Source: Patescibacteria group bacterium (GTDB taxonomy: Bacteria; Patescibacteriota; Microgenomatia; UBA1400; PJMF01). From it: DNA of 64,000 nt. The stretch spans positions 46,838 to 110,837 of the forward strand of contig JBBDKV010000003.1 in the NCBI GenBank assembly GCA_040879165.1. The letters are read 5' to 3'. The notes beneath the pieces were generated by a model. That model saw only the letters and a program-made list of their open reading frames with translations, had not been told where the DNA came from and searched no databases. Below are positions 2,922-50,082 of the stretch, piece by piece. The position numbers and the translations under genes are program-made. Numbering within the stretch: the first letter of the stretch is position 1; the number at the start of each line of letters is the position of its first letter.

Positions 2922-3314
2922 TTAGTCTCTGCGACCAAATCCACCGCCACCGCCACGATTATCGCGACGATCGCCACCACGGTATCCACCGCGGTCGCCA
3001 CCACCAAAGCCGCCACGATCACCACCACCGGTGCGTTCTCGAGGTTGGAAAGGACGTGCGACATTAACGATTAGCGCTCTGCCTTCAAGTTCCATGCCAT
3101 TTACAGCTTCAATAGCTGCATCTGCCATTTCTTTACTTGCATATTCAACAAAAGCGATGCCTTTTGAACGGCCGCTCATGCGATCGATGATCAATTTAAG
3201 ATCAACAATTTCACCATGTTCAGAAAAGATGTCTCTCAACTGATCTTCAGTGACGCTGTAAGGCAAGTTGCCTACAAACAATTTATTTGGATTAACCTGG
3301 GGATCGGTTGTCAT
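2922..3314 (-). CDS. RNA-binding protein with an RRM domain and a Gly/Arg-rich (RGG) tail
   Basis: 130 aa. RNP motifs LFVGNLPYSVTE and KGIAFVEY are present. The C-terminus is GGGDRGGFGGGDRGGYRGG repeats. A strong SD (GGGAGAA) precedes the ATG. Confidence 0.8.
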   Translation of the reverse strand: MTTDPQVNPNKLFVGNLPYSVTEDQLRDIFSEHGEIVDLKLIIDRMSGRSKGIAFVEYASKEMADAAIEAVNGMELEGRALIVNVARPFQPRERTGGGDRGGFGGGDRGGYRGGDRRDNRGGGGGFGRRD

Positions 3315-8296: not shown

Positions 8297-8316
8297 ACTG
8301 GTATTCTATACCACAG

Positions 8317-9762: not shown

Positions 9763-9798
9763 TTTTTAACAGACTATTCTCCGCGGTATAATACAAGC

Positions 9799-10893
9799 AT
9801 GCGACCACTCATTACACTCGCAATAGTATCAGCAGTAACACTCTGCATTGGTCTTTTTGCTGGCTCGCTTTGGCACGATAGAATGCCATGGAGCAGTGCA
9901 GATATGTTCTCAGACACCCCGCTCGGTGACCTGGTAGAAACTATTGAACCCGAACGACCACTAGAACGCTATACGTTTCAAACGCTCAGAACTGAAACTT
10001 TTGAGCCTGCACATGTTGCAATCACTGAAGAGCTTGCCACTAATCCAGACTTTACGAGTTATTTAGTGATGATCCAGACGCTAGATAAAACCATGAGCGG
10101 ACAGTTAAACATTCCAACTGAAGTTACTGACGACACACCAGTCATTATTATGCTGCGCGGCTATGTCAGTCCAGACATATATTTTACTGGGCTAGGAACT
10201 CGCAACGGCGCTGCTGAATACGCCCGAGCTGGATATATAACTCTGGCTCCTGATTTTTTTGGTTACGGACAAAGTGATCCAGAACCTGAAGATTCATGGC
10301 AGGCACGATTTGAAAAGCCTATCATCGTGGCAGAAATTTTGAATGGCGTACGCGAATTAGGAGTTCCTACTACCAACGGCTCACATGCAACCGATAGAAT
10401 TGGACTATGGGGACACAGCAATGGTGGTCAGATTGCCCTCAGCGTCCTCGAAATTCTGCAAGAACCAATTCCCGCTACCCTTTGGGCTCCGGTAACCGCG
10501 CCGTTTCCCTACTCAGTGCTTTTCTTTACCATCGATCATGATGATGATGGACGAGGCATGCGATTGTGGATCAATCAATTGGAATCTATCTATGACTTGC
10601 ACAATTTTTCAATTACACGGCATTTGGATGGACTGCGCGGTCCACTTATGATTCATCATGGCAGCGGAGATGATGCGGCACTTCTTGACTGGTCGAGGCG
10701 GTTTGCTAATCTAGTGGATGAAGAAAATGAGCGACGCGAATCTCTAATCAGTACTGCCTCAGCAGAACTTGCAGTGCCTGAGCCTATCGGGTTTACCCTG
10801 CATACATATCCAGGTGCCGATCACAATTTACAGCCAGGCTGGAATACCGTGGTGGAGCGGGATATACTGTTTTTTGATAGACATTTAAAGTAA
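9799..10893 (+). CDS. Membrane-anchored alpha/beta hydrolase (S9/dienelactone-hydrolase-like serine hydrolase)
   Basis: 364 aa. It has an N-terminal TM, a GHSNGG nucleophile elbow (GxSxG) and a downstream His (HHGSGDD). Confidence 0.65.
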   Translation: MRPLITLAIVSAVTLCIGLFAGSLWHDRMPWSSADMFSDTPLGDLVETIEPERPLERYTFQTLRTETFEPAHVAITEELATNPDFTSYLVMIQTLDKTMSGQLNIPTEVTDDTPVIIMLRGYVSPDIYFTGLGTRNGAAEYARAGYITLAPDFFGYGQSDPEPEDSWQARFEKPIIVAEILNGVRELGVPTTNGSHATDRIGLWGHSNGGQIALSVLEILQEPIPATLWAPVTAPFPYSVLFFTIDHDDDGRGMRLWINQLESIYDLHNFSITRHLDGLRGPLMIHHGSGDDAALLDWSRRFANLVDEENERRESLISTASAELAVPEPIGFTLHTYPGADHNLQPGWNTVVERDILFFDRHLK

Positions 10894-10906
10894 AGCAAGG
10901 CTGCTT

Positions 10907-11587
10907 ATGGAAAGACATATTTACCTGACTCGTCATGGCGAGACGGATTTTAATCTCACTAAACGAGTTCAGGATGCTGAAACACCTGTGTTAACTAAAC
11001 GAGGTCAAGAGCACGCTCTCGCATTGAAAGCAACCATAGAAACTATGGGCGTAGATTTTGATTGCATTATTTGCGCTGATACTAAGAGAACGCGCCAAAC
11101 ACTCGCTCTGATTTTTCCTGATTATAAAAATATGCCTCAAGTTTTAATAGATCCTCGCAACCAAGAGCGATTGCATAGAGGACTCATAGGATATACAAAG
11201 CAGCAAATTGCTGAAGCAATTGGAGTAGAGCTACAAGGTCGCTTATCCTGGCCATTGTACTTCGAAGGCACTGATCAATCGGTCTTAACAAACAGATTTC
11301 CAGAAAATGAAACAATAGAACAAATTAGAGAACGCGTGTCTTCACTCATAGATGAATTTCAAAACCATACGAATATCCTCATAATTGGCAGTTCAATTAT
11401 TAATCACTACATTCTGGAATACCTCATTCATGGCTCAATTGGTAAGCAGAAAGCTGAGTATCCAGAAGGCAATCAGCTCGACTTCCAAAGTCATGATGAG
11501 ATACGAGTTGTTACACTAGACGAAAATATGCACGTTACTAACTACAAAATAATACAAACAGGGCAGCCTACAACTAACGAGGAGTAG
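10907..11587 (+). CDS. Histidine phosphatase family protein (phosphoglycerate-mutase-like)
   Basis: 226 aa. The RHGETDFN motif is at the N-terminus. Confidence 0.75.
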   Translation: MERHIYLTRHGETDFNLTKRVQDAETPVLTKRGQEHALALKATIETMGVDFDCIICADTKRTRQTLALIFPDYKNMPQVLIDPRNQERLHRGLIGYTKQQIAEAIGVELQGRLSWPLYFEGTDQSVLTNRFPENETIEQIRERVSSLIDEFQNHTNILIIGSSIINHYILEYLIHGSIGKQKAEYPEGNQLDFQSHDEIRVVTLDENMHVTNYKIIQTGQPTTNEE

Positions 11588-13298: not shown

Positions 13299-13712
13299 TT
13301 GATATACTATCGACACGTAACGTCTTCAATAAAAAAAGTTTTTATGAACAAACTCATCTATTCTGAAACAGAAGCTCGACAAGAGCTAACACAACTTTTA
13401 GCTGATATCAATTCGCCACAAGAAATTGCTGATTTCTTAGCTGCTTTTATTAAGGAGTCGGAAGTAAGCAACTTAGCTAAACGAGTTGCAATATTGAAAC
13501 TGTTGGAAGAAAATGTTTCGTATGAAGATATTCAAAATCAACTGAGCGTTTCCAGCGCTACTGTATCTGCAGTTGCTCAAACCAGAGAGCTTCCCATTAG
13601 TCAACGAATTTTGGAGAGAATCGCTGCGCAGAATTGGGCTGACCAACAGTTTAAAAAAATTCAACAGTACTTTAATCCTGATCAACCAAAAAATCAGAGT
13701 CAAACATTGTAA
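13299..13712 (+). CDS. YerC/YecD-like (TrpR-related) helix-turn-helix protein
   Basis: 137 aa. It contains the SYEDIQNQLSVSSATVSAV HTH segment typical of the YerC family. The true start may be the internal Met at about 13344. Confidence 0.55.
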   Translation: MIYYRHVTSSIKKVFMNKLIYSETEARQELTQLLADINSPQEIADFLAAFIKESEVSNLAKRVAILKLLEENVSYEDIQNQLSVSSATVSAVAQTRELPISQRILERIAAQNWADQQFKKIQQYFNPDQPKNQSQTL

Positions 13713-13794: not shown

Positions 13795-15225
13795 ATGTCC
13801 AACAACTTCTACATTACCGCTGCAATTCCTTACGTCAATGGCAAGCCACATCTTGGTCACGTTTTAGAATGGTTTCAGGCCGATAGTATCGCTCAATATC
13901 AACGTATGATTGGCAATACCGTAACTTTTAGTTGCGGCACTGATGAAAATAGTCTCAAAAACGTTCAGGCAGCAGAGAAAGCCAATATAAGTAGCCAAGA
14001 CTGGCTCGACCAATACGCTCAGATTTTTGAGGATGCCTTTGAAGAGCTTGGAATTTCCTTAACCAATTTTCGCCGTGGCAGCGATCAAGTTCATCATTGG
14101 CCAGGTGTGCAAGAATTATGGAAAAGATGTGAAGCCGCAGGTGATATTTATACGAAAGAATACACTGGACTCTACTGCGTTGGCTGTGAAATGTATTACA
14201 CTGAAGCCGAATTGGTGGATGGATTATGTCCAGAACATCTCAAAAAGCCCGAATCAATTACTGAGACCAATTACTTTTTCCGCCTCTCAAAATATGAGCA
14301 GCAAATCAAAACACTCATAGAATCGAATCAATTATCAATTGTTTCTGATCAATTTCGCCAAGAAATGCTCGGTTTTGTTAAGCAAGGTCTTGAGGACTTT
14401 AGCGTGTCTCGATCTCAAGAACGCTCTCGAGGTATCGGTGTGCCAGTTCCCAATGATCCGAGTCAAGTAATGTATGTCTGGTTTGACGCCTTGGCTATTT
14501 ACCTAACGAGCATTGGCTGGGGATACGATGCCCAATCTTTTGACAAAGCTTGGCCAGCAGACGTGCATGTAATTGGCAAAGGTATTGCGAGATTTCACGC
14601 CGTCTATTGGATCGGCATGCTCCTTTCTGCTGGGCTTTCCCTCCCAAAAGCTATCTCAATTCATGGCTACATTACCTCAGATGGTCAAAAAATGAGTAAA
14701 TCACTTGGTAATGTTGTTGAGCCATTTAGCCTCATACAACAATATGGACTTGAACCAGTACGCTATTACTTACTCAAACACATTCCCACTCACTCGGACG
14801 GAGACTTTTCTGAAAAGATGTACCAAGAAGTCTACACGGCAGATTTAGCGAATGGCATAGGCAACCTCTGCTCCAGAACCGCTACACTAGCAGTTAAAAC
14901 GAACGCCACCGCACCAATAGATTCTCCGGACAAATGCAACCCTGCTTTTGCAAAGTCTATGAATGCTTTTAAAATCAGCGACGCGCTTCTCTGGATTATC
15001 GATCAAGTTAAAACAACTGATCACTATCTAAGTGAAAAACAACCATGGAAAAACCCTGATGCACCAGAAGCAGCGCAGGTCGTCACAGAAGTCACACATA
15101 AAGTAGTGGCAATCGGCTACCATTTACAGCCATTCATGCCGCAAACGGCTGCCAAAATTCTCAATCACTTTACAAAGCAACCAATAACAGCAATGACTGA
15201 GCCGCTATTTCCCAGACTTTCTTAA
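13795..15225 (+). CDS. metG: Methionyl-tRNA synthetase (short form)
   Basis: 476 aa. It has PYVNGKPHLGH (HIGH motif), KMSKS, and a Zn-knuckle CVGCE...CPEH. Confidence 0.92.
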   Translation: MSNNFYITAAIPYVNGKPHLGHVLEWFQADSIAQYQRMIGNTVTFSCGTDENSLKNVQAAEKANISSQDWLDQYAQIFEDAFEELGISLTNFRRGSDQVHHWPGVQELWKRCEAAGDIYTKEYTGLYCVGCEMYYTEAELVDGLCPEHLKKPESITETNYFFRLSKYEQQIKTLIESNQLSIVSDQFRQEMLGFVKQGLEDFSVSRSQERSRGIGVPVPNDPSQVMYVWFDALAIYLTSIGWGYDAQSFDKAWPADVHVIGKGIARFHAVYWIGMLLSAGLSLPKAISIHGYITSDGQKMSKSLGNVVEPFSLIQQYGLEPVRYYLLKHIPTHSDGDFSEKMYQEVYTADLANGIGNLCSRTATLAVKTNATAPIDSPDKCNPAFAKSMNAFKISDALLWIIDQVKTTDHYLSEKQPWKNPDAPEAAQVVTEVTHKVVAIGYHLQPFMPQTAAKILNHFTKQPITAMTEPLFPRLS

Positions 15226-15265: not shown

Positions 15266-16093
15266 ATGAGCACTATGATTATTGATACCCACAGCCACTA
15301 CAACCTACCTCCTCTGTACCAGGATTGGCATCGACACTGGCAAGAGGCACAAGCACATGACGTAGTGGGAGCATTGGTGATTGGCACTAATCTCAAAACG
15401 AGTCGTGCAGCTATAACGATCTCCGAAAACGAATCGCAGCTTTGGCCAGCGGTTGGCATTCATCCCACCATGGCCGGAGAGTTCCTCAAATCATCTTTAG
15501 AGCTTGAAAAAACCATTGCTGAATTGGGCAAACTGGCAAACCAAGACGACGTGGTTGCAATTGGTGAGTGCGGACTTGATTACTTTCGTTTGCCAAAAGC
15601 TGGCGAAGCTAGAGATGCAGAGATAGCTTTACAACAACAATTGTGTCGCGCGCAACTCCAGCTTGCAGGCGAGCTACAATTACCAGTCAGTATTCATCTT
15701 AGAGACAAAACCAGCCTTGCGTATCACGATTTCTTAGAAATGTATCAAGAAATTGATCCGCAAGTGCCAACCATTCTACACTGTGTTTCCGGACCAACAG
15801 ACTGGGTGCTAACCATGCTTGAACACGGAGCGTTCGTCAGTGTGGCAGGTAACGTCAGCTATCCAAGCGCAGAACACGTTCGGGGCTTGGTGGCGATTAT
15901 CCCTCCCGATCGATTACTGATTGAAACCGATGCCCCATACCTGCCGCCAAAAGCCTATCGAGGTGAAAGCTGCTTGCCCTGGATGATTTCTGAAACTATG
16001 ACATTTTTAGAACAATTCTTAGATAAGAACAGAGAAGATATCTACCAAAATACCATCAGTATTTTTCCACAGTGCGAAAAGGTACTGGAGTAA
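15266..16093 (+). CDS. tatD: TatD-family metal-dependent hydrolase / DNase
   Basis: 275 aa. IDTHSHY is at the N-terminus. metG-tatD is a conserved gene pair. Confidence 0.85.
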   Translation: MSTMIIDTHSHYNLPPLYQDWHRHWQEAQAHDVVGALVIGTNLKTSRAAITISENESQLWPAVGIHPTMAGEFLKSSLELEKTIAELGKLANQDDVVAIGECGLDYFRLPKAGEARDAEIALQQQLCRAQLQLAGELQLPVSIHLRDKTSLAYHDFLEMYQEIDPQVPTILHCVSGPTDWVLTMLEHGAFVSVAGNVSYPSAEHVRGLVAIIPPDRLLIETDAPYLPPKAYRGESCLPWMISETMTFLEQFLDKNREDIYQNTISIFPQCEKVLE

Positions 16094-16099
16094 TCCTAG

Positions 16100-17623
16100 T
16101 TGATCGAGGAACACAACGTGCAAGACTTACTAATCAAATTCGTTGATCGCTATCCGGTCAAAACTCAGCGTGCTTTAGAGATTCTTCCTGGCTTTGTGTC
16201 CTGGATGCTCATTTTATTTCCATTTTGGGGATCATTCTTTTTTCCAATTTGGGTGGCGTACTACGTAATTGCCTTCAGCGTGTATTGGCTCTATCGCTCT
16301 ACTACGTTGGCAGCACTCTCTATCATGGCTCATTTCAAAATCAAAGCAGCGCAACGTTTTGATTGGCTCGCTGATCTACAAAAAAACTATCCAGATTCTT
16401 GGAACTCAATTCATCACTTAGTTATCATCCCCACCTATCAAGAACCTATCACGACACTTGAAAGAACATTGCAAGCCTTGCAGCAACAAACGTTTCCGCT
16501 GAAAAACATTCATATTATGTTGTCATTTGAAGAACGAGAAGGCGCGATGGCTGATGCCAAAGCAATGCAACTCAAGGAATTGTTTAAAAATACCTTTGGC
16601 AATCTTTGGACGACCAAACACCCAGATATTGTGGGAGAGGTGAAGGGCAAGTCATCAAATACTGCATGGGGCGCCCGACAAGCCAAAAAAAATCTAGTGG
16701 ATACTCAGAAAGTTCCGCTCGAGCAGATAACCGTCAGCAGCGAAGACGCGGATGCCATGTTTGACAAACAGTACTTTGCAGCTCTGACTTTCGCTTTCCT
16801 CAGTGAGGAAAATCCGTATAACAAAATTTGGCAAGGAGCAATTGTTTTTTATAATAATATTTGGAAAGTGCCAGCCCCGGTACGAGTCATCTCGTCAATG
16901 TTTTCAGTGATTCAGATGTATATTCTGATGCGGCGCGATCGGTTGGTCAATTTCTCTACCTACAGCACTTCACTCAAGCACATTGTGGACATTGGCTACT
17001 GGGATACTGACGTCATTCCTGAAGATTATCGATTATTTTTCAAATCATATTTTGCCAAAAAGGGCGATTTTAGCGTTGAGCCAATTTTTCTACCTATTCA
17101 CGCTGATGCTGCCGAAGCTCACTCCACCTGGGCAACGGTCAAGAATCAGTATGAACAACTGAAGCGTTGGGCATGGGGCGTCAGTGACGATGCCTACATT
17201 ATCAAACAATACATCAAGGCTAAGGGTGTTCCTTTCTGGGACAAATCCATTCGCGTGCTTAAAGTTATCGAAGACCACTTTCTCTGGCCAGTTAATTGGT
17301 TTGCCATCACGGTGTCAGCTTTTTTACCACCATTACTCAACGATGAATTCAATCGTACGGTGATCGGACGAACCCTTCCCCAGGTCACTAGCACGCTGCT
17401 CACTCTAGCATTGGTGTCTATGTTGGTTATTTTTATTATCGATGCTGTCAACAGGCCACCGCGACCCAACAAACACAACCCACTCTCATACATCGCCCAG
17501 CCGCTTGAGTTTTTAATGCTACCAATTATTGGTTTCTTTTTCTCTGCGCTGCCTGGAATAGATGCTCATACTAGACTGATGATGGGTAAATACATTGAAT
17601 ACAAAGTAACTAAAAAAGTGTAA
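16100..17623 (+). CDS. Membrane GT2 processive-type glycosyltransferase (cellulose/chitin-synthase-like, QxxRW)
   Basis: 507 aa. N- and C-terminal TM helices flank a GT-A domain with a DAD motif (SSEDADAMFD) and QLKRWAWG (QxxRW). The track start at 16100 is a TTG codon. Confidence 0.8.
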   Translation: MIEEHNVQDLLIKFVDRYPVKTQRALEILPGFVSWMLILFPFWGSFFFPIWVAYYVIAFSVYWLYRSTTLAALSIMAHFKIKAAQRFDWLADLQKNYPDSWNSIHHLVIIPTYQEPITTLERTLQALQQQTFPLKNIHIMLSFEEREGAMADAKAMQLKELFKNTFGNLWTTKHPDIVGEVKGKSSNTAWGARQAKKNLVDTQKVPLEQITVSSEDADAMFDKQYFAALTFAFLSEENPYNKIWQGAIVFYNNIWKVPAPVRVISSMFSVIQMYILMRRDRLVNFSTYSTSLKHIVDIGYWDTDVIPEDYRLFFKSYFAKKGDFSVEPIFLPIHADAAEAHSTWATVKNQYEQLKRWAWGVSDDAYIIKQYIKAKGVPFWDKSIRVLKVIEDHFLWPVNWFAITVSAFLPPLLNDEFNRTVIGRTLPQVTSTLLTLALVSMLVIFIIDAVNRPPRPNKHNPLSYIAQPLEFLMLPIIGFFFSALPGIDAHTRLMMGKYIEYKVTKKV

Positions 17624-17632
17624 GATTGAGCT

Positions 17633-19219
17633 ATGCGCCAATTTTTTCGCTCCACTGACGCAATCATCCTTGCTGGATTGTTGTTACTTGTTACGCTACT
17701 ACGACTTCCCAACTTTTTTGAACCATATTGGTACGGAGACGAAGCCATTTACCTAACCATTGGTAACGCACTCAATTATGGCGAAATACTCTATCAAGAC
17801 ATTGTTGATCACAAAACTCCAGGCATCTACTGGTTGGCACAAGTGGGAACACAACTCAACTTTCGAATTGTATTGATGGGCTGGATGCTGGCCAGCACAA
17901 CGCTATTTTTTCTAATCTCTAAACAAGTATGTAGCAATCGTTGGTCAATCGGCTGGGCAAGCCTGTTCTTCGTCATATTCACCAGCATTCCTTTTTTTGA
18001 GGGTAATATTCCTAATGGCGAATTATTCGTTATTGGCTTCGTGCTACTTGGCACGTGGCTGCTGCTTCAAAGCACTGTTGGTCAAGCCATCAAGATGCAG
18101 AAAACAAGTACCACACATACAAAAGATTTTGTATTTCTGCTAGGCTCAGGAGCGGCGTTTGGCTTAGCCATACTTGTCAAAATACCAGCGTTATTTGATT
18201 GGCTTGGCGCAATTTCTCTACTCTATTTTATAGTGCTCAGATACGCCAGTACGCAGGGTTGGAAATCATACACAAAGCTTTGGCAATCCGTACGGCACTA
18301 TCTACTGTTAACATCTGCACAGACCTTGGCAGTTTTGCTCGTACTGGCAGCAAGTATCGGATATTTTTGGTTGATTGGCGCTGGCTCAGACTACCTAGAA
18401 TTCGGACTGCTCTATAACTTTCACTATGCAGGCAACTGGGAAGTTACACATCTCGATCCCAAACTGGCTTGGTGGTTTTCACTCCCAGGAAAGGCGACAT
18501 TTCTTGCAGTAACTGGCGTTATCTTGAGTTTTATATCGTTTCAAAAGTTATCAGTGGTTGGTCGTTGGCTCGGCATGTGGGTGGCGCTAGCTTTAATTGC
18601 TGCACTGCTTTCAAACCGTCCGTACCCTCATTATTTTCTCCAAATTATTCCTCCACTAGCGTTGCTGCTTGGACACACAATTGAGGAATGGTCCGTCAAG
18701 CGAAAAAATCGAAAAAGCAGCAGCTTATCACTTACTACCGCACTCACTGGCATACTTATTACTTTCAGCGTGCTGACCATTTGGTTGATCAACGCCTTTC
18801 CTTACCCAACAATTTCGTATTATGCTACCTGGTACAGGTTTATGACCAATCAAATCACTCCAACAGAGTATCGAGATAGTTTTAATTATCTACTTGCAGA
18901 TAATTATCGATTTAACCAAGCTGATTTGGTACAACCCGGAGAAAACTTGTTTATTTGGGGAACTAATCCAATGTTGTATGCTCAAACCCAGACCATTCCC
19001 GTTGGTCGCTTTACGGTTGCATTTCACATTCATGACTTAGGACTGTACTCCGAAACAATGCAAGCTGTAGAACGTGTCAAACCAAAAATTATCATTACGC
19101 AACACGCAGAAGACACCGAACTTCCTGGTCTTAATCAATTATTGGAAGCAGAATACGTTGCCGATGAAACGTATGATCACTTTACTCTTTGGCAGCTCCG
19201 AGATAGTATTGCGGAGTAA
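17633..19219 (+). CDS. GT-C fold glycosyltransferase (PMT/ArnT-like)
   Basis: 528 aa polytopic membrane protein. WYGDEAIY (DE motif) sits in the first loop. The C-terminal half is soluble. Confidence 0.65.
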   Translation: MRQFFRSTDAIILAGLLLLVTLLRLPNFFEPYWYGDEAIYLTIGNALNYGEILYQDIVDHKTPGIYWLAQVGTQLNFRIVLMGWMLASTTLFFLISKQVCSNRWSIGWASLFFVIFTSIPFFEGNIPNGELFVIGFVLLGTWLLLQSTVGQAIKMQKTSTTHTKDFVFLLGSGAAFGLAILVKIPALFDWLGAISLLYFIVLRYASTQGWKSYTKLWQSVRHYLLLTSAQTLAVLLVLAASIGYFWLIGAGSDYLEFGLLYNFHYAGNWEVTHLDPKLAWWFSLPGKATFLAVTGVILSFISFQKLSVVGRWLGMWVALALIAALLSNRPYPHYFLQIIPPLALLLGHTIEEWSVKRKNRKSSSLSLTTALTGILITFSVLTIWLINAFPYPTISYYATWYRFMTNQITPTEYRDSFNYLLADNYRFNQADLVQPGENLFIWGTNPMLYAQTQTIPVGRFTVAFHIHDLGLYSETMQAVERVKPKIIITQHAEDTELPGLNQLLEAEYVADETYDHFTLWQLRDSIAE

Positions 19220-19237
19220 ACTTGCTATAATGACGCT

Positions 19238-19603
19238 ATGCCTGAAAACTTCCATCGCTATGGTCGTTGGTCAAAAGCACCAACATTAGCCAAAAAACAG
19301 TTGCTCTGGTCATTTTATCTGACTACTGCCATTACCCTAATTGCAACTGTTTTTTACTTTTTTGCCCAACCACACCTACCTTTTTTCTATACACTCCCAC
19401 TGGATAGTCAGATGCTGGCACCAAAATTATGGCTATTTCTCTTTCCCAGTATTTCACTCGGAATTACGTTGCTACACATGATTTTGCTCGGTCTATTTTA
19501 TGATTTAGACGAATTAATTCTCCGACTGTTCGCCAACGCAACAACCATCATCCAGAGCATACTACTCTTGGCACTGGTACGAATAATTGTCATTACTTGG
19601 TAA
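19238..19603 (+). CDS. Small 3-TM membrane protein of unknown function inside the glycan operon
   Basis: 121 aa. It is in phase with the operon and has hydrophobic helices. Confidence 0.4.
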   Translation: MPENFHRYGRWSKAPTLAKKQLLWSFYLTTAITLIATVFYFFAQPHLPFFYTLPLDSQMLAPKLWLFLFPSISLGITLLHMILLGLFYDLDELILRLFANATTIIQSILLLALVRIIVITW

Positions 19604-20685
19604 ACAACGCGTATATGCTTGAACTACTCAGTTTTTTACTGACAGCACTACTAGCCACATTGCTAACACCTCTGGTAATCCAGTACTATAAACGAAAAAA
19701 TTGGCTTGATGAACCAGAGAAAAAAAGACACGTTAAGGTTACCCACACCACGGCGGTACCTCGTGGTGGTGGTCTTGTTATTTTTCTCAGTATAGTGTTC
19801 AGCAGTTTATTATTGCTCAATATTGACCAATACTTACTCGCCATTTTGTTTGGCGCTGCACTTCTGGCCATCGTAGGCATGCTTGATGATATTTATGATA
19901 TTCATCCACTGATTCGTCTTACTGCCAATACTATCGCAGCGTTGATTGTCGTTGGCTCTGGCATAGGCATCGCCTACGTTAGTCATCCGTTTCAAGAGGG
20001 AGTTATTCATCTTGATCAGCCACAAATTAGCTTCTGGGCTTTCGGTGCTGAACGAACCATCTGGTTACTCTCAAGTTCATTAGCAGTCTTATTCATCATT
20101 TGGAATATGAATATTGTCAACTGGTCAAAGGGCGTAGATGGTCAAATGCCGGGATTCGTGATGATTGCTCTGATTTTTATTGGAATACTCTCAACTCGAT
20201 TTATAGGTGATCCGACAGAATTTAACACCATGATGCTGAGCTTCATTACAGCGGGTGCATTTGGAGGATTTTTACTTTGGAATTGGTATCCACAAAAAAT
20301 TATGCCAGGCTATGGTGCAGGCTCTTTGGCTGGTTACTTCTTAAGCGTATTAGCCATACTCTCAGGAGCCAAGGTAGCTACAGCCTTAATGGTGCTGGCG
20401 CTGCCCACAGCCGATGCGGTATTTACTATTATTCGCCGTATTCGTGCTGGTAAGTCTCCAATTTGGGGAGATCGCGGCCATTTCCATCACAAATTAATTG
20501 ATGTTTTTCACTGGAGCAAGCAGCAAGTGGCGGTTTTCTATTGGTCTGTCAGTTTAATTATGGGAGTGGTATCATTATACGTGAGCACCTTAGGAAAATT
20601 GGTGGCCATAGCCATTACTTTTGGACTGACCTTTGGTGTATTAATTTGGGCTAAAATAAAACAGCTGCGCCATGACTCACAATAA
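19597..20685 (+). CDS. Polyprenyl-phosphate N-acetylhexosamine-1-phosphate transferase (WecA/TagO/MraY family, GT4 membrane)
   Basis: 362 aa. It contains MLDDIYD and NMNIVNWSKGVDG with about 10 TM helices. This is the priming enzyme for lipid-linked glycans. Confidence 0.82.
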   Translation: MVNNAYMLELLSFLLTALLATLLTPLVIQYYKRKNWLDEPEKKRHVKVTHTTAVPRGGGLVIFLSIVFSSLLLLNIDQYLLAILFGAALLAIVGMLDDIYDIHPLIRLTANTIAALIVVGSGIGIAYVSHPFQEGVIHLDQPQISFWAFGAERTIWLLSSSLAVLFIIWNMNIVNWSKGVDGQMPGFVMIALIFIGILSTRFIGDPTEFNTMMLSFITAGAFGGFLLWNWYPQKIMPGYGAGSLAGYFLSVLAILSGAKVATALMVLALPTADAVFTIIRRIRAGKSPIWGDRGHFHHKLIDVFHWSKQQVAVFYWSVSLIMGVVSLYVSTLGKLVAIAITFGLTFGVLIWAKIKQLRHDSQ

Positions 20686-21637
20686 AAGCGTCTTCTACAA
20701 CCTCTTAAAAACCGCACGTCCTCGGCAATGGATTAAAAACTTGGCATTGTACGCAGCGCTGATTTTTTCAGGCATGCTGTTTTATGTACCCACTGACGCC
20801 CCCGCCTACTTTTTGACTGTAACTCTCGCCTTCATCACTTTTAATTTCATCACTTCTAGTATCTATATTTTTAACGATATTGTTGATGCAGAAGCCGATC
20901 GCAATCATCCATTCAAAAAGAAGCGACCTATTGCATCAGGCGCACTTTCAGTACGCTCAGCCAAAATTGGCGCTGGAGTTTTGCTCATCATTAGTCTTAT
21001 TTTGTCATTTTATTTAACGTTCTTCTTTCAACTGATGGCACTTGCCTACGTACTGCTTCAGATATTATATGCGAAGTTTCTCAAGCACATTCCAATTTTT
21101 GATGTAGCATCAATAGCCACCGGCTTTCTGATCAGAATTTATGCCGGGGCGCTCGTCGTTAATCTCCATATGAACGTTTGGTTTTTACTGACTGTTATCT
21201 CAGCGTCATTATTCTTAGCTGTGGGTAAACGTCAAAGTGAGCGCACACTACTTTCTGGGCAATCAGAGGAAGTAATCGGCTCAACACGCAAGATTCTCAA
21301 GCACTACACCCAGCGCTTACTCGACCAATACACGGGCATGTTTGCCACTGCAGCATGGCTTAGCTATGCCATTTATACCTTTCAAGCACAAACAGTTGTT
21401 CCAGCAGCCGAATTTACTCAAATCTACACATTTTTACCAAAAACACTGCACTCGCAAAAACTACTGATGCTAACACTACCTTTTGTAATTTTTGGCATCA
21501 TGCGCTACTTACAACTGATTTATGAAAAAAATGAAGGTGAATCCCCAGAGCGAGTGCTGCTTGGAGACAGAACGTTGCTCACCACACTTTTTATGTTTGG
21601 CAGTAGCGTTCTCTTAATTATTTACGTCATCGGTTAA
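20672..21637 (+). CDS. UbiA-family prenyltransferase, decaprenyl-phosphate phosphoribosyltransferase (DPPR synthase)-like
   Basis: 321 aa. It has NDIVDAEADRNHPFKKKRPIASG, the NDxxDxxxD...RPIASG signature of UbiA family / Rv3806c-like enzymes. Confidence 0.6.
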   Translation: MTHNKSVFYNLLKTARPRQWIKNLALYAALIFSGMLFYVPTDAPAYFLTVTLAFITFNFITSSIYIFNDIVDAEADRNHPFKKKRPIASGALSVRSAKIGAGVLLIISLILSFYLTFFFQLMALAYVLLQILYAKFLKHIPIFDVASIATGFLIRIYAGALVVNLHMNVWFLLTVISASLFLAVGKRQSERTLLSGQSEEVIGSTRKILKHYTQRLLDQYTGMFATAAWLSYAIYTFQAQTVVPAAEFTQIYTFLPKTLHSQKLLMLTLPFVIFGIMRYLQLIYEKNEGESPERVLLGDRTLLTTLFMFGSSVLLIIYVIG

Positions 21638-21660
21638 ACCTAATTATCTGCCCAAAAAAT

Positions 21661-23007
21661 ATGTTGACTAGTTTATTGCATCAATACCGAGCAAGTATTC
21701 TCCTGCTCATTCTTGCGTTTGCCTTCGTAACTCGCATTCTGTTTGTTGATCAGCCAGAGGAATATTACTTTGATGAAGTCTACCACAGCGTTACTGCTCG
21801 ATTGATAGCTGAAAATGATCCCCGAGCCTTTGAATGGTGGAATACAGCGCCAGAGCAAGACACCGCTATCGATTGGCTCCACCCCCCTGTAGCTAAGTAC
21901 ATTCAAGCCAGTACAGTCCTGCTTTTTGGAGCCAATAGCTTCGGCTTTCGCTTTAGCTCAGTGCTGTTTGGCGTCGTAGTTATTCTGCTTACCTACCATG
22001 TGGCTCAACGCCTTTTTAACAATACTCGACTCAGCCTGCTGGCTGCTGCACTGGCTAGTTTTGATGGACTACTGCTCGCTCAATCAAGAATTACCATGAA
22101 CGATATTCATGTTACAGCCTTTATTCTACTCAGCACATTGTGTTTCTTGACGTATTTGCACAATCAAAACAGTAAATGGCTGCTATTGACCGGCGTGATA
22201 ACAGGCATAACCATCGCAACCAAATGGTCTGGCATTTTAATACTTCCGGCGTTTGTCGCTCTATTATTTTTTAATTGGCTCGCATCAGGCAATCAAATAC
22301 AAGTCAAAAAAATTGCTCAGGTTGTCGGTGCATTGGGCATCATTCCACTAATTGTATTTATTAGCAGCTATGCTCTTATGTTTGCGCAGGGTAAAGATCT
22401 CGCTCACTTTATAGAGTTACAAAAACAAGTTTGGTGGTATCAGACAACGTTATCTGCCACCCATCCAGCGCAATCGCGACCTTGGGAATGGGTCTTAAAT
22501 ACGAGTCCTGTTTGGTATCACGTTGATTACATCTCAGACGAGTTACGTGGCAACATTTATGCACAGGGCAATCTCCCGCTCTATTGGCTTGGAGCGATTG
22601 CTGTACTGGCCGCTAGTCTGCATGTTGCACGAAAGAAAATCACTGCTTTTACGGCTTCCCGAAATGCATCATATGTCCAGCGGTTGCAAGCAATTACTCG
22701 ATCAGTCGTCACTGAGCCAGTTGCGCCACTAGTACTGTTGTATTTTATACTTTGGGTACCGTGGCTTTTTTCTCCAAGAATTATGTTTTTCTATCACTAT
22801 GCACCAGCCGTGCCATTTATGTGCATTCTTTTGGCATGGTGGCTGCTCAGATTACAACAAAAAATCAAGCATGGTTCGTATCTTATCTGGACCGCTTTTC
22901 TTGTAATAGGTGTTTGGTTTGTAGCTTGGTACCCCTACTGGACTGGAGTTCCCACACCGATTATTTTTCACGAAAATATCTATCAATATTTTGATGTGTG
23001 GAAATAG
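21661..23007 (+). CDS. Protein O-mannosyltransferase-like GT39 (PMT family, GT-C)
   Basis: 448 aa. It has FDEVYH in loop 1, an R-rich loop and a polytopic topology. Confidence 0.7.
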   Translation: MLTSLLHQYRASILLLILAFAFVTRILFVDQPEEYYFDEVYHSVTARLIAENDPRAFEWWNTAPEQDTAIDWLHPPVAKYIQASTVLLFGANSFGFRFSSVLFGVVVILLTYHVAQRLFNNTRLSLLAAALASFDGLLLAQSRITMNDIHVTAFILLSTLCFLTYLHNQNSKWLLLTGVITGITIATKWSGILILPAFVALLFFNWLASGNQIQVKKIAQVVGALGIIPLIVFISSYALMFAQGKDLAHFIELQKQVWWYQTTLSATHPAQSRPWEWVLNTSPVWYHVDYISDELRGNIYAQGNLPLYWLGAIAVLAASLHVARKKITAFTASRNASYVQRLQAITRSVVTEPVAPLVLLYFILWVPWLFSPRIMFFYHYAPAVPFMCILLAWWLLRLQQKIKHGSYLIWTAFLVIGVWFVAWYPYWTGVPTPIIFHENIYQYFDVWK

Positions 23008-23012
23008 AAAAC

Positions 23013-26000
23013 CTACTTTTCATCTAAAAAATCTAAATTTCTCATTTCCTGGACCACCTCACGAATTACCTTCTTCAGCTCGCCTACCTCTTCGTCTACC
23101 AAATCAAAATGATGCTGTGTAATAATTTTTTTACTTTCAGCGTACAAAAACTCAAATTGACCGGCTATGACTGTTGGTTGAAAGGTGTTGTCTAAATCAG
23201 TCAATAATTTATAAAACAATAATTGTCGCTTATACGGACCGCGAATGCTTTCTGGCAAGGCACGTTCACGGTGCGAGAGTTTGTCAATAGCGGTCGCCCC
23301 GATAATGGCGTTTTTTGACTGAGGCTTACTAGCCTTATAGTCAATGACGCGAACTGTTTTTTCATCAGGACTGACCCAATCAATACGATCAATTCTCCCT
23401 GTCAATGCTATGTCATCCATCCAAACAGGTTTGCTCGTAGAACCAAAAGTTCGCTCAGTAAAGGCAAGCATTTCTGGCTGGAAAGGTTTCTCCTGATGAT
23501 AGGCCTCTACCACTGTTGTGCCCTGCTGTAATCGACGAGCGTGTTCATGCTCACCAAACTCTCCCTTGCGCAAACCTTCGTCAAGTGTGGCAATAATCTC
23601 TGCAAAGTCAATTGTTCGTCCAAGCAAGTGCTGCTTTACCAATTTCTCAATACCTGCATGCAAGGCAGTGCCGTAAATCATGTGCCCTTGCGCTACTTGC
23701 GGCACGCGTAAAACATCATTGAGCACAAATTCAGCGGGGTCTCTGAGGTATCGATTTAGAGCAGAAACTGACATCTTGAAATCTGCCATTTCTGATTGCA
23801 AAAACCGTCGTACCGCAGGAGTTCGATCAATCAAAACGGGCGGTGCCAAGAGCTGTGCTAAAGTAGGTTGCACCGCAGTATCATCAAGCGAAATCTGCTC
23901 AAGATCAGCGAAGATTCCAGCTTCATGCAAAAACATACTTGCCACTTGTGCCTTAGTTTTTCCTTTAGCAAGCAGTGTTTCTGGATAGGTGCAGTAGACA
24001 GCCTTGCTTGCTCGGGTGAGTGCGACATAAAACAATCGTCGATCATCTTCGTTGCGTTCTTTTTTAGTGACATCAGTATATTTCAAAACAGAATCAGGAA
24101 GTGGCAATAACTCCCGCTGACGCGCATTACCCCACTTCCCATCATAACAAGCTGTGATGAATACATACTGCCACTCTTTACCCTTGGCACCGTGAACTGT
24201 ACTCAACTCAACCGCTTCCTCAGCAAACGCTGAGCTACTGACCGGTATGCTCAGACCATGCAGTTGTAGTATTGCTGTGGACTCAAGCAGCTGCGACAGT
24301 GAGAATGAAGGTGCGCCATCCGCCCATTCCTGAACAGTTTTTTGAAAAGAAAGCAGTGCCATCAAATCAGGTAATCTTGACAGATCAGACCTTAGCCACT
24401 GAATGATGCCTGCTTGGTCAAATACCTCGCGCAACCAGTGAGAAATTCCTGTCTGAGCCGCTAGCTGACCAAGGCTCTCTAATTGGGCAACTACTTGCTG
24501 TATTTTTTCCAGCTCCGTTGCTGAGACATCTGGCAAAACCGCGACAAGTTCCTCTGTGTCCTTCTGCAACAAATGATAGAGTGATCCTCGTTCACGACCA
24601 GCTTTTTGTACCAACTGATAAACTACCGCTGATTCAAGTTCCCACCATGGTTGGAGTAAGACTTGATACAACGTATAACTATCTGCTTGGGCTTCAAGCT
24701 CATCAACGACTTGAATCAATCGCAACACGTCTTGTACTGCTTTAACGTTCAAAGCATTCTGTTCTGCTTGAGTTTTGGTAACAATGTTGTGTTGTGCTAG
24801 CACGTCTGCAAGCTGTAATGACTCAGCGTTGGTTTTAGTTAAAATTGCAATCTGATCAGCCGCAACGCCACGGTTGAGCAATTGTTTGATTTCTTGAACA
24901 AGTATCAACCATTCCTGAATATCTGAAGGCGTTGAGTAGGTAATAATTTGTTTGGTAGTGCGATCATGCTCTTGTTGACTCTGCAAAGACTGCTGTAGTT
25001 GTTGGCTAATAGCGGTCTCAATGCTAGTTCCTGACTGAGCGGTAAGCTGATTTTCACCAATCAGCTTGTGAGCGCTATCGTATATTGGTTGCGGACAGCG
25101 ATACCCCTGAGTCAAATTAATAACGGTTGCAGTAGGAAATCTCTCTAAAAATGCGTAGACATTTTCTACTGAAGCACCTTGAAATCGGAAAATTGCTTGG
25201 TGTGGATCACCTACCACAAAAATGTTAGCGGCTTCACCCCAGTGAGCACTCAATTGCCAAAGCAGCTCATTCTGCGTAGCATTGGTGTCCTGATACTCAT
25301 CAGTCAGTACGTACTGGTAGCGCTCCTGATAGGTCTGCAACAGCGTCGACTGCGTCTTAAATCCCTCAAGCACCAAATTAATCATATCGTCAAAGTCATA
25401 ACGCGCCATCTCACCAAGTGCCTGCTGGTACGCACTGAACACCTGAGCAAGTTCAGTATTTTTTTGTCTCTTTTTTTCAAAAGCGGCGAGCGTGGTTTTG
25501 TTTTTTGTGTCTGGAGGCTCAGCAAAGTCGTCTTTGACTAGTTTGGCAAAAGTTGTTGGATTGTAGCCTTCCTTTTTTACATTACTAATGGCCTCTAAAA
25601 TTGATCGCGCGTAATGTCGCGGGTCGTTGAGCGGTTTAAGCACTTCTAGCTCTAGTTCTGAGAGTAGTTTTTCTATCAAGAGATAGCGCTCCAAATCAGA
25701 CAACGCTTGGCTCGCGGGATTTATCGGAAACTGATCACTTTGCTCTGAAAGGACGTCTGCACAAAATGCGTGAAAAGTCATAATACTAACGTAGTAGCCC
25801 GTTTGACCAATCAGAGAAACAAGTCGCTCGCGCATGTTTTTAGCAGCTGCATCAGTGAAAGTAATGGCTAAAATGGACTGTGGTGGGGTGTCAGTTTTTT
25901 GCAATATTGCGGCAATTCTTGCCGCAAGCACTTGGGTTTTACCGGTGCCTGGACCAGCTAACACCATTACTGGGCCTTCAATTGTTTCCACTGCCTGTAA

Positions 26001-26084
26001 TTGTTCAGGATTCAGCATGGCCAATAAATTGCGATATTGATCTGCAGATTTGTCTTGTGAAGCGGTTGCTTTTGGAGAGGTCAT
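23013..26084 (-). CDS. UvrD/PcrA/AddA-family SF1 helicase fused to a C-terminal PD-(D/E)XK nuclease
   Basis: Helicase motifs: AGPGTGKT, TFTDAAAKNM, DEYQDTN, VGDPHQAIFRFQGA, YRCPQP, VHGAKGKEWQYVF. The C-terminus has RIDRIDWV...VIDYK (nuclease core). The start is trimmed to the Met at 26084 (MTSPKATAS); upstream codons translate a CAACAAG DNA repeat. Confidence 0.8.
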   Translation of the reverse strand: MTSPKATASQDKSADQYRNLLAMLNPEQLQAVETIEGPVMVLAGPGTGKTQVLAARIAAILQKTDTPPQSILAITFTDAAAKNMRERLVSLIGQTGYYVSIMTFHAFCADVLSEQSDQFPINPASQALSDLERYLLIEKLLSELELEVLKPLNDPRHYARSILEAISNVKKEGYNPTTFAKLVKDDFAEPPDTKNKTTLAAFEKKRQKNTELAQVFSAYQQALGEMARYDFDDMINLVLEGFKTQSTLLQTYQERYQYVLTDEYQDTNATQNELLWQLSAHWGEAANIFVVGDPHQAIFRFQGASVENVYAFLERFPTATVINLTQGYRCPQPIYDSAHKLIGENQLTAQSGTSIETAISQQLQQSLQSQQEHDRTTKQIITYSTPSDIQEWLILVQEIKQLLNRGVAADQIAILTKTNAESLQLADVLAQHNIVTKTQAEQNALNVKAVQDVLRLIQVVDELEAQADSYTLYQVLLQPWWELESAVVYQLVQKAGRERGSLYHLLQKDTEELVAVLPDVSATELEKIQQVVAQLESLGQLAAQTGISHWLREVFDQAGIIQWLRSDLSRLPDLMALLSFQKTVQEWADGAPSFSLSQLLESTAILQLHGLSIPVSSSAFAEEAVELSTVHGAKGKEWQYVFITACYDGKWGNARQRELLPLPDSVLKYTDVTKKERNEDDRRLFYVALTRASKAVYCTYPETLLAKGKTKAQVASMFLHEAGIFADLEQISLDDTAVQPTLAQLLAPPVLIDRTPAVRRFLQSEMADFKMSVSALNRYLRDPAEFVLNDVLRVPQVAQGHMIYGTALHAGIEKLVKQHLLGRTIDFAEIIATLDEGLRKGEFGEHEHARRLQQGTTVVEAYHQEKPFQPEMLAFTERTFGSTSKPVWMDDIALTGRIDRIDWVSPDEKTVRVIDYKASKPQSKNAIIGATAIDKLSHRERALPESIRGPYKRQLLFYKLLTDLDNTFQPTVIAGQFEFLYAESKKIITQHHFDLVDEEVGELKKVIREVVQEMRNLDFLDEK

Positions 26085-26208
26085 GGTGCAAGTATACCAA
26101 AGTACGCGTGTTGCAATATTTTTGCAATGTTGGTTATTTTTCGTATCGTTGCGCTTGTTGCCGTTCGTGTTGTAGTACTTGTTGCTGTACTTGTTGGGCC
26201 GAAGCAAG

Positions 26209-27030
26209 CTAGGCTGAGAAATCAAACTCGTTAAATGGCGGACAAACAATTCTATTACTTTCGCCAATTGCATCTATAGCGGCAACATCTTCATCTTCAA
26301 GTTGCCAATCTTGGGCCAGCAATGCATCCGCGATCCGCTCAGGCTTGCTTGAGCGAGGAATAACGATCATGTCCTTGCTCAGCAACCAATTAAGAATCAC
26401 TTGCGCAGGACTCCGTTGATATTTTTCTGCCAATGTTTGAATAATCGGCAACTGCAAGTCAGCTCCTTGAGCTATAGGAGAGTAGGCAGTGATACGTATA
26501 TCGTGTTCAGCACAAAAAGCGAGCAATTCTTCTTGATTAAGCGAGGGATGAAACTCAACTTGATTGATAGCAATAGTATGCCCAGTTTCTAAAGCCTGTT
26601 TAAGGTGAGCGATGGTAAAGTTTGATACGCCAAAAGACTTGATAATACCCTGCTTTTGCAAAGAAGCCATTGCCCCAAGCGTTTCGTCAATCGGAATATC
26701 ACGATTTGGCCAATGAATCAGTAGTAGATCAAGATACTCTGTTTGCAGTTCTTGCAAAAATCGCTCGGCAGCGCGCTGCAGATCCGCGGCATGCAGCTGA
26801 TCACGCCAAACCTTAGTCGTGAGAAAAATGTCTGAACGCTTGATGCCGCTATCCGCAATGCCTGCAGCTACATCAGCATGATTACCATATCGATCAGCGG
26901 TATCAAGGTGACGATGCCCCGCCGCAAGCGCTGTTGCCACTGCCTGCTGACAGGCTTTGCCAGTCAACTGCCAGGTGCCAAAACCGAGGGAGGGAATGGT
27001 GGTGTTTGGGTTGAGTTGTAGGGTTTTCAT
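26209..27030 (-). CDS. Aldo/keto reductase
   Basis: 273 aa. It has LGFGTWQL, DTADRYGN and IHWP motifs. Confidence 0.85.
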   Translation of the reverse strand: MKTLQLNPNTTIPSLGFGTWQLTGKACQQAVATALAAGHRHLDTADRYGNHADVAAGIADSGIKRSDIFLTTKVWRDQLHAADLQRAAERFLQELQTEYLDLLLIHWPNRDIPIDETLGAMASLQKQGIIKSFGVSNFTIAHLKQALETGHTIAINQVEFHPSLNQEELLAFCAEHDIRITAYSPIAQGADLQLPIIQTLAEKYQRSPAQVILNWLLSKDMIVIPRSSKPERIADALLAQDWQLEDEDVAAIDAIGESNRIVCPPFNEFDFSA

Positions 27031-43588: not shown

Positions 43589-44010
43589 CGCTCTGCCAGC
43601 TTCGCGCTAGCAGTAGCGGTGACAAGTTGAAGTAGAGACTGGTTTTCTGAATTGCCTCCGGCGACTTGTTCGCCAACCTGGCGAAACAGAAAGCTCTTTA
43701 ACAGGCATACAGGAAATAAACTGGGGAAACCTAGTTATAGATAGCTATTTCTGGCTAGAAATAGTGTTCTCCTTGTAGCCCCTTACGCTCCATTAACGTG
43801 GTGCGGGTAACTGGCAGTTTCTCACAAAGCGAACTGCGAGCTGCCCGCATCATCCTAATATTCGGAAGCACAACGATGTGCAGAAGATATTAGGGCGATG
43901 GACTTTTGAGGAGGCTACGGGCGCAAGTTACAGCCTCCTCATATAAAGTTTTCTAACTTTGGGGCAGGCGCCGTGCTTGTCCCGATTTTTTCAATAAAGG
44001 AGAAAGTATC

Positions 44011-45297: not shown

Positions 45298-45470
45298 ACG
45301 GCACCCGCCAGCTGCAGCGGTTCACCAAAAGCAGCTTAAAAAAATATTTCCTCGTATGCCTACGTCCCCCTCTTCGGAGGGGGACTCCCCAAAGGGTACA
45401 ACTCGCTTGCGCCTTTTGGGGAGTCAAAAAAAGCTCTGATATTTATAGGAAAATAAAAAGGAATAATACT

Positions 45471-45680: not shown

Positions 45681-45713
45681 TCCGTATAAAATTAAAAAGC
45701 GGCTTAGATCTGT

Positions 45714-50023: not shown

Positions 50024-50082
50024 TTTTTTACATTCAGTAACTTCCTACACTTCCCTAAAGACTCCTGCGCTAGACTTAGCGC

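Follow-up and report, generated by a model that had tools for sequence, protein, structure and literature searches.

Which envelope component might Patescibacteria build with the run of membrane enzymes encoded directly behind the gene for methionyl-tRNA synthetase? We addressed this question in a 64,000-nt stretch of DNA from a Patescibacteria group bacterium, hereafter the window (contig JBBDKV010000003.1, positions 46,838 to 110,837; assembly GCA_040879165.1), in which six co-directional open reading frames (ORFs) on the plus strand, here called g1 to g6, occupy positions 16100-23007 directly 3′ of metG and tatD. An original prediction made from the letters of this DNA had announced a seven-gene operon for the assembly of lipid-linked glycans. 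The range holds six ORFs; the observation was partly confirmed, and its interpretation proved largely right. We put at about 0.55 the probability that the cluster is a conserved and probably constitutively expressed envelope-glycan operon of Microgenomates-type Patescibacteria, ultra-small and uncultured members of the candidate phyla radiation (CPR), which runs on a polyprenyl-phosphate-pentofuranose donor pathway. The assignments of g1-g6 at the enzyme level are solid, and the pathway-level picture is offered as a well-motivated hypothesis.

The UbiA-superfamily enzyme and its partners

Pfam assigned g5 (20672-21637; 321 amino acids, aa) to the generic UbiA family only. When NCBIfam was searched, three decaprenyl-phosphate phosphoribosyltransferase models ranked top: g5 passed NF008978 (215.9 bits, cut-off 207), came just under NF008977 (224.4 bits, cut-off 234) and scored 155 bits against NF008976 (cut-off 474). 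The generic 'UbiA family prenyltransferase' model NF006088 was the highest of the other UbiA-type models at 137 bits, and models for quinone, heme, chlorophyll and archaeal-lipid prenyltransferases reached 18-55 bits, with ubiA_proteo, the best aromatic (quinone-type) model, at 35 bits. The best match in the PDB by phmmer was 8j8j, the cryo-EM structure of Mycobacterium tuberculosis Rv3806c (E=5.5e-34, 35% identity over 225 residues); the structure of archaeal digeranylgeranylglyceryl phosphate (DGGGP) synthase gave E=4e-8. These scores agree with the original prediction, which had placed the enzyme with the synthases of decaprenylphosphoryl-5-phosphoribose (DPPR) rather than with quinone prenyltransferases.

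In Rv3806c, 5-phosphoribosyl pyrophosphate (PRPP) and Mg2+ are held by N73 and D77 (Mg2+), N73 and Q135 (ribose), K28, Y70 and Y157 (5-phosphate), and R22, K87, R90, Y138, K143 and K208 (pyrophosphate), and this phosphoribose site sets the enzyme apart from UbiA prenyltransferases (PMC10994848). Thirteen of the 14 Rv3806c positions checked are identical in g5, including all Mg2+, ribose, 5-phosphate and pyrophosphate contacts except Y157. The PRPP and Mg2+ contacts correspond to R16, K22, Y65, N68, D72, K82, R85, Q130, Y133, K138 and K207 of g5, most of which are invariant among 28 homologs, and Y157 is replaced by F152, a variant that also occurs in some mycobacteria (PMC10994848). On this basis we assign g5 with high confidence as a putative polyprenyl-phosphate 5-phosphoribosyltransferase (PPPRS) of the Rv3806c/DPPR-synthase family.

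An aromatic prenyltransferase for quinone synthesis, of the 4-hydroxybenzoate polyprenyltransferase or MenA type, would also fit the generic Pfam assignment. Many homologs of g5 carry the JGI name '4-hydroxybenzoate polyprenyltransferase', an enzyme that a metabolic map of Patescibacteria places under antioxidant biosynthesis (PMC11484240). The UbiA, MenA and MqnP models gave 25-35 bits as against 216-224 for the DPPR-synthase models, and the residues that distinguish Rv3806c (K28, Y70, Q135 and the K/R cluster) are all present, so that the quinone-prenyltransferase reading is effectively excluded. The JGI name is very likely a misannotation, which appears to have been propagated into at least the one published map, and the assignment given here corrects an annotation that has been read as quinone or antioxidant metabolism. 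The protein in NCBI identical to g5 is named decaprenyl-phosphate phosphoribosyltransferase.

Two genes of the cluster encode glycosyltransferases of the GT-C type. The product of g2 (17633-19219; 528 aa) had no Pfam match at all, and NCBIfam has no model for its family. Because Pfam gave no match for g2 and a subthreshold one for g1, the folds of both proteins were derived by structure prediction. The g2 model matched ALG3 (21.4), GPI mannosyltransferase I (20.9), AglB (19.3) and Pmt4 (19.1), followed by ArnT (18.5), PimE (15.6) and AftA (14.1), and ends in a C-terminal alpha/beta domain of about 100 residues (about 430-528). D36-E37, in the motif YGDEAIY just after the first transmembrane (TM) helix, are invariant in 40 homologs. 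The model thus gives g2 a GT-C transmembrane fold with putative catalytic acidic residues in the first extracytoplasmic loop, and g2 is predicted to use a polyprenyl-phosphate-sugar donor outside the cytoplasm.

The other GT-C, g6 (21661-23007; 448 aa), is PMT/GT39-like, of the bacterial type that has no MIR domain, and passed the Pfam cut-offs for PMT (75.4 bits), PMT_2 (79.2 bits) and PMT_4TMC (73.5 bits). Among 58 homologs, D38-E39 (YFDEVYH) are kept in 57, R143 in 55 and the HPP-AK motif in at least 55. Against the NCBIfam Pmt equivalog NF058602, g6 scored 72 bits (cut-off 800). By these matches g6 is a bona fide member of the PMT/GT39 family, far from the characterised Pmt equivalog, and an accessory member of the cluster. 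The acidic residues expected of GT-C enzymes are hence kept in both proteins; together with the grouping of g5, this means that neither outcome named in the original prediction as refuting it was observed. The earlier count of two or three GT-Cs holds for two in the range, and the third lies outside it, at 8152-9762. Since g2, g6 and this third protein have no pairwise BLASTP similarity, they represent distinct families, and we rejected the idea that they are recent paralogs.

The third GT-C, of the PMT_2 type, heads a tight trio on the plus strand 5′ of the cluster; next come an alpha/beta hydrolase (9799-10893) and, last, a protein of the histidine phosphatase superfamily (10907-11587). In other loci, the trio 8152-11587 shows no synteny with the main cluster. 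Its last member, a His_Phos_1 protein 5 kb upstream, was considered as a ribose-5-phosphate phosphatase for the pathway discussed below and was not supported, as it does not accompany the cluster elsewhere.

The first gene, g1 (16100-17623; 507 aa), encodes a membrane-integrated glycosyltransferase of family 2 (GT2). In the predicted structure, two TM helices precede a GT-A domain, which interface helices connect to further TM helices at the C-terminus; this architecture points to the fold of cellulose synthase BcsA and hyaluronan synthase (HAS). Close homologs all share E215-D216-A-D218 (DxD), E308-D309 (the ED/TED base) and Q353-L-K-R356-W357, and D216, D218, D309, Q353 and R356 stay invariant in 46 family members at 26-46% identity; the family comprises 376 representatives (50%-identity clusters) at E <=1e-30. 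We take g1, on its modelled fold, to be a synthase-type membrane GT2 and a candidate processive glycan synthase. The fold and motifs agree with the processive-type GT2 named in the original prediction, and all motifs quoted there were found: QLKRW at 353-357 of g1, NDIVDAEAD...RPIASG in g5, and the two GT-C motifs given above. The Pfam families suggested there matched in the case of Glycos_transf_4, UbiA and PMT_2; against Glyco_trans_2_3, g1 stayed below threshold (21 vs 27 bits).

The g4 product (362 aa if read from TTG at 19597 to 20685) belongs to the superfamily of polyprenyl-phosphate N-acetylhexosamine-1-phosphate transferases (PNPT; MraY/WecA/TagO type). It matched Pfam Glycos_transf_4 at E=2.7e-22 and MraY (PDB 5jnq) at E=2e-8. 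Its best NCBIfam match was wecA with 65 bits (cut-off 326), and mraY gave 45 bits (cut-off 192). D97-D98 and the WecA-like D292-R293-G-H295-x-H297-H298 are invariant in 78 homologs. The canonical motif of WecA and MraY is NxxNxxDGxDGL; at residues 172-183 of g4 the PNPT signature reads NIVNWSKGVDGQ (N172-I-V-N175-W-S-K178-G-V-D181-G-Q). Judged by these residues, g4 is a PNPT member with DD and HxHH motifs, in a distinct, divergent subfamily of the WecA/MraY superfamily marked by Lys178. The earlier label of a WecA-like polyprenyl-phosphate HexNAc (N-acetylhexosamine)-1-phosphate transferase stands at the superfamily level, and the WecA equivalog is far from reached.

Between g2 and g4 lies g3 (19238-19603), which encodes an orphan membrane protein of 121 aa with three predicted TM helices. 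An ORF of about 106-164 aa is found at this position in 77 loci. The protein has three hydrophobic segments, and Q44, P48, P70 and the intramembrane R115 are invariant in an alignment of 25 sequences. Neither these 25 members nor their profile found a Pfam or PDB relative. A GtrA/SMR-type flippase, by analogy with Rv3789, was rejected, as the 25 members have no Pfam match and the protein has three TM helices and not four. We regard g3 as a candidate flippase for lipid-linked sugars or an accessory subunit. Having no family model, both g2 and g3 are worth structural study.

Conservation and organization of the cluster

We compared 82 related loci, from 80 species-level genomes and two assemblies. 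Sixty-two of them keep g1-g2-g4-g5 in colinear order, a recurrence beyond chance, and contig ends interrupt the cluster in 14 more. In essentially all colinear loci with room, metG-tatD lies directly 5′ of g1. The last gene is less constant: g6 adjoins g5 in 52 loci and is absent from 26 with room, where a GalU-like nucleotidyltransferase gene is often found 3′ of g5. In the most divergent loci (L066, L070 and L083), only g2-(g3)-g4-g5 are still together, even without adjacent g1 and metG-tatD. The invariant core is hence a GT-C, a small protein, a PNPT enzyme and a UbiA-type enzyme. Median tblastn identities were 72% for g1, 64% for g4 and g5, 44% for g6, 42% for metG, 41% for g2 and 38% for g3. 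Across the clade, the GT2 (63-76%) is far more conserved than the neighbouring tRNA synthetase (39-65%).

The relatives that carry the cluster are Pacebacteria, Woesebacteria and Microgenomates genomes, and proteins identical to g5, g2 and g1 are deposited in NCBI under 'Patescibacteria group bacterium'. The operon belongs to Microgenomates-type CPR bacteria; the Saccharibacteria, proposed earlier as the clade for comparison, were the wrong choice. The cluster is a core, class-wide conserved operon and not a variable serotype module.

Individual loci deviate in other ways. A 501-aa ORF on the minus strand followed by a 174-aa ORF takes the place of g2 in one locus (L019:6474-8558), and a 756-aa ORF precedes g4 in another (L036:6640-8910). 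In L070 and L083, a glutamyl-tRNA-synthetase-like gene stands in place of metG-tatD-g1 upstream of g2, and a small GtrB-like GT2 is encoded nearby. Many of the operon-carrying records among L004-L083 are titled 'uncultured Pseudomonadales bacterium', 'Limisphaerales bacterium' or 'Vitreimonas sp.', labels that look wrong for these contigs.

The genes are tightly packed directly downstream of metG-tatD, as had been described, with intergenic gaps of 6 (tatD to g1), 9, 18 and 23 nt. The 14-nt overlap of g4 and g5 noted before (20672/20685) is firm, since the ATG of g5 at 20672 agrees with the N-termini of its homologs and g4 stops at 20683-20685. The other overlap claimed, between g3 and g4 (19597/19603), requires that g4 begin with the TTG at 19597. 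From the ATG at 19615, g4 would encode a 356-aa product, as called by another pipeline on an independent assembly, leaving an 11-nt gap after g3; this start agrees with homolog N-termini and is the more likely one on the sequence comparison.

Upstream, metG (13795-15225, plus strand; Pfam tRNA-synt_1g, E=7e-93; TIGR00398, 390 bits vs a cut-off of 336) is a co-directional housekeeping gene and likely begins the transcription unit that includes g1-g6. It is followed by a gene for a TatD/YcfH-type metal-dependent hydrolase (15266-16093, plus strand; Pfam TatD_DNase, E=2.5e-58), the position of which is conserved. Immediately 5′ of metG, a Trp-repressor-family protein is encoded on the plus strand (13299-13712; Pfam Trp_repressor, E=1e-11), with a counterpart at the same position in about 18 related loci by tblastn; it is a possible regulator of the transcription unit. 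On the 3′ side of g6, a UvrD/PD-(D/E)XK helicase gene is convergent (23013-26273, minus strand).

Elsewhere in the window, a plus-strand region at 45714-51393 may represent a second envelope-glycan module. It begins with an EpsE/TuaG-like GT2 gene (45714-46691), the only other GT2 gene in the window, whose stop overlaps the start of a gene for a 1110-aa protein that has no family model; in this protein, about 12 TM segments at the N-terminus are followed by a large domain outside the cytoplasm and, at the C-terminus, by one more TM helix. A lamin-tail-domain (LTD) protein is encoded next (50083-51393). We rejected the GT2 as a Ppm1/GtrB-type donor synthase for g6, since it is of the EpsE/TuaG kind and finds its best matches in the PDB among Leloir polymerases. 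The GC content rises to 0.53 at 44001-46000 and 0.50 at 50001-52000, compared with about 0.43-0.45 elsewhere in the window, and at 50-52 kb the GC skew takes a strongly negative value (-0.22). The GC-rich stretches fall on a lipoprotein-like orphan ORF (44011-45297) and on the gene for the LTD protein. At 2922-3314, the minus strand encodes a 130-aa protein that combines an RNA recognition motif of the eukaryotic type (RRM_1, E=6e-26) with a tail rich in glycine.

A proposed pentofuranose donor pathway and its alternatives

In the pathway that we propose, g5 would move 5-phosphoribose from PRPP onto polyprenyl phosphate at the cytoplasmic face, as its family and active site suggest. A phosphatase would remove the 5-phosphate, and the polyprenyl-phosphate-ribofuranose would then cross to the outer face, speculatively by way of g3. 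There g2, joined by g6 where present, would place the pentofuranose on an envelope acceptor, a role in keeping with the GT-C fold and catalytic loop, with donor and acceptor presumed. As their families suggest, g4 may make a polyprenyl-pyrophosphate-HexNAc primer for a lipid-linked acceptor glycan, and g1, also by its fold, may supply or extend a beta-glycan backbone.

A Pfam scan that took in nearly all window ORFs of at least 120 aa bears on the donor. No GtrB/Ppm1-type polyprenyl-phosphate-hexose synthase was found in the 64-kb window or in the annotated flanks of the related loci L002 and L003, so that close to the GT-Cs g5 alone is recognisable as an enzyme that makes a sugar donor on a lipid monophosphate. 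In Citrobacter, Pseudomonas and mycobacteria, pentofuranoses are attached outside the cytoplasm by systems composed of a PPPRS, a flippase and a GT-C; in characterised systems the sugar stays ribofuranose where no gene for an epimerase is found with those for the PPPRS and the GT-C (PMC11127046). Neither a DprE1-like flavin adenine dinucleotide (FAD)-dependent oxidase (FAD_binding_4/ALO) nor a DprE2-like short-chain dehydrogenase/reductase (SDR) was seen among the window ORFs scanned or in the annotated flanks of L002 and L003. Since no epimerase of this type is found with the cluster, the delivered sugar is most likely ribofuranose and not arabinofuranose, and the arabinose analogy with Corynebacterineae drawn in the original prediction was not supported. 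That the cluster lies 3′ of metG-tatD and that g1 is so unusually well conserved point to a constitutive and important function in the envelope.

Several points weigh against this picture. Promoter and terminator scans gave counts not above those of shuffled controls, which is evidence neither for nor against a single transcript; because of this, the reading as one operon rests on spacing and synteny. Synthase-type GT2s normally need neither a lipid-linked primer nor GT-C partners, so that the link of g1 to the rest of the cluster could be only positional. PMT-family enzymes use polyprenyl-phosphate-mannose, and g6 may for this reason use a donor made elsewhere in the genome. Lys178 of g4 replaces the first Asp of the canonical signature in 76 of 78 homologs, and g3, with three TM helices instead of four, matches no flippase family. 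No PAP2 or HAD phosphatase was found by the cluster, and no MATE, Wzx or GtrA-type flippase was found, either among the window ORFs scanned or in the annotated flanks of L002 and L003. The proposed route is incomplete, as a phosphatase, an epimerase and a recognised flippase are all missing from the cluster. The inspection for DprE1 and DprE2 covers 64 kb of the genome plus the two annotated flanks, and everything above the enzyme-family level is inferred.

The sugar and its acceptor could also be other than we propose. The product of g5 might be epimerised to D-arabinofuranose by DprE1/DprE2-like enzymes encoded elsewhere, with the GT-Cs acting as arabinofuranosyltransferases. In known arabinofuranose systems the epimerases are encoded together with the PPPRS and the GT-C, no pair of FAD_binding_4/ALO and SDR proteins was found in the window or the annotated flanks of syntenic loci, and arabinosyltransferases match the g2 structure more weakly than ALG3, PIG-M, AglB, Pmt4 and ArnT; we consider this route rather improbable. 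Slightly better placed, but still unlikely, is protein O-glycosylation as the main output, by which the GT-Cs would modify surface or secreted proteins such as pilins or an S-layer while g1 and g4 serve a separate polymer. The PMT/GT39 membership and DE motif of g6 speak for it, as does the high rank of Pmt4 and of the oligosaccharyltransferase AglB in the structural comparison with g2, and TfpW of Pseudomonas glycosylates pilin from a PPPRS-derived donor (bioRxiv 10.1101/2020.04.19.049825). However, g2-g5 persist in the 26 of 78 loci with room from which g6 is missing, the cluster contains no gene for a candidate acceptor protein, and the invariable linkage of the WecA-like primer enzyme to g5 suggests a lipid-linked glycan as the acceptor.

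We think it very unlikely that g1-g6 are unrelated membrane enzymes of housekeeping kind, with g4 working in peptidoglycan synthesis or a different lipid-linked pathway, g1 making an exopolysaccharide on its own and the gene order reflecting operon inertia behind metG. Synthase-type GT2s are autonomous in known systems, some lineages have g1 and g6 apart from the core, the cluster follows on housekeeping genes, and a biochemical link among its products is inferred rather than demonstrated. Yet g2-(g3)-g4-g5 stay together when all their surroundings change, the overlap of g4 with g5 is firm, and a PPPRS has no known use besides supplying GT-C enzymes (PMC11127046, PMC10994848). For g4, the score far under the MraY equivalog cut-off argues against a role in peptidoglycan synthesis, for which Microgenomates reportedly possess their own complete pathway (PMC7143001).

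The envelope-glycan operon with a pentofuranose donor thus seems to us the best account of the cluster. A bolder version is tentative and in our view improbable: the operon would make a lineage-defining, essential wall glycopolymer of ribofuranose or possibly ribose-phosphate, the CPR counterpart of arabinogalactan or teichoic acid. The WecA-like primer enzyme and the cellulose/hyaluronan-synthase-like enzyme would build its backbone, the GT-C without a family model, drawing on polyprenyl-phosphate-ribose outside the cell, would decorate or lengthen it, and the 3-TM protein would be a new kind of flippase or a GT-C subunit. Next to nothing is known of the chemistry of Patescibacteria envelopes, by which these bacteria attach to host cells. 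A class-wide operon linked to housekeeping genes offers the testable hypothesis that a pentofuranose glycoconjugate, probably with ribofuranose, is a major surface component, and the predicted pathway provides targets for labelling or inhibition.

Comparison with known systems

In the literature searched, no paper links Patescibacteria with DPPR synthase, DprE1 or GT-C systems, in agreement with the earlier remark that such a pathway had not been characterised in this lineage. Of the components, g1 resembles BcsA, hyaluronan synthase and the CesA/Csl proteins in fold, whereas it has no PilZ domain, BcsB or other partner, its sequence similarity is too low for detection by Pfam or PDB profiles, and its conservation within the clade is unusually high. 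The same fold is also found in non-polymerising enzymes such as the minimal PcManGT, and g1 may or may not be processive. The PMT, PMT_2 and PMT_4TMC domains, the DE motif and the MIR-less bacterial architecture of g6 are shared with actinobacterial protein O-mannosylation (Ppm1 plus Pmt, GT39). Unlike in that system, no Ppm1/GtrB-type synthase for polyprenyl-phosphate-mannose is encoded in the window, and the neighbour of g6 is a phosphoribosyltransferase gene.

The decaprenylphosphoryl-arabinose (DPA)-arabinogalactan pathway of mycobacteria and corynebacteria (Rv3806c, Rv3807c, DprE1/E2, Rv3789, AftA-D/Emb, GlfT2 and WecA) begins with the same enzyme, whose contacts to PRPP, Mg2+ and the 5-phosphate are conserved in g5. 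It likewise combines GT-Cs that consume a lipid-monophosphate pentose donor with a WecA-type primer enzyme, a polymerising GT2 and a small membrane protein. In contrast, neither DprE1/DprE2 nor an Rv3807c-type PAP2 phosphatase was seen in the window or the annotated flanks, the GT2 is a BcsA/HAS-type membrane synthase and not of the soluble GlfT2 type, g3 is not GtrA-like as Rv3789 is, and the GT-Cs are not Emb or Aft proteins by sequence. The WecA-like gene lies inside the cluster and overlaps the UbiA gene, and the host is a monoderm CPR bacterium without mycolic acids. Outside Corynebacterineae, a PPPRS-derived donor is also used by a GT-C in the D-arabinofuranosylation of group IV pilin of Pseudomonas aeruginosa (TfpW, PPPRS and DprE1/E2 homologs), a possible model by analogy if the acceptor of the cluster is a protein. 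That system includes epimerases and adjoins the pilin gene, neither of which is true here.

The best conceptual match is provided by the three-component pentofuranose systems (Kelly et al. 2024, PMC11127046; Citrobacter youngae ORF15/ORF14/ORF12, GT136), in which an Rv3806c-family PPPRS is clustered with a GT-C and polyprenyl-phosphate-ribofuranose is the predicted donor when there is no epimerase. The Patescibacteria cluster differs from them in that g5 consists of the UbiA fold only, without a fused HAD phosphoribose-phosphatase domain, the MATE flippase is absent and the orphan g3 is present instead, and two unrelated GT-Cs are encoded, one of which has no family model. Moreover, it is not an accessory serotype module in an O-antigen locus but a class-wide core behind metG-tatD with its own PNPT enzyme and synthase-type GT2. 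Clusters of PPPRS and GT-C are already known as a kind, and the NCBI pipeline already names g5 correctly. What is new here is the class-wide conservation and the unusual gene composition of such a cluster in CPR bacteria, by which the PRPP-dependent lipid-pentose donor pathway known from mycobacteria and Gram-negative O-antigens is extended into the CPR with a different genetic architecture.

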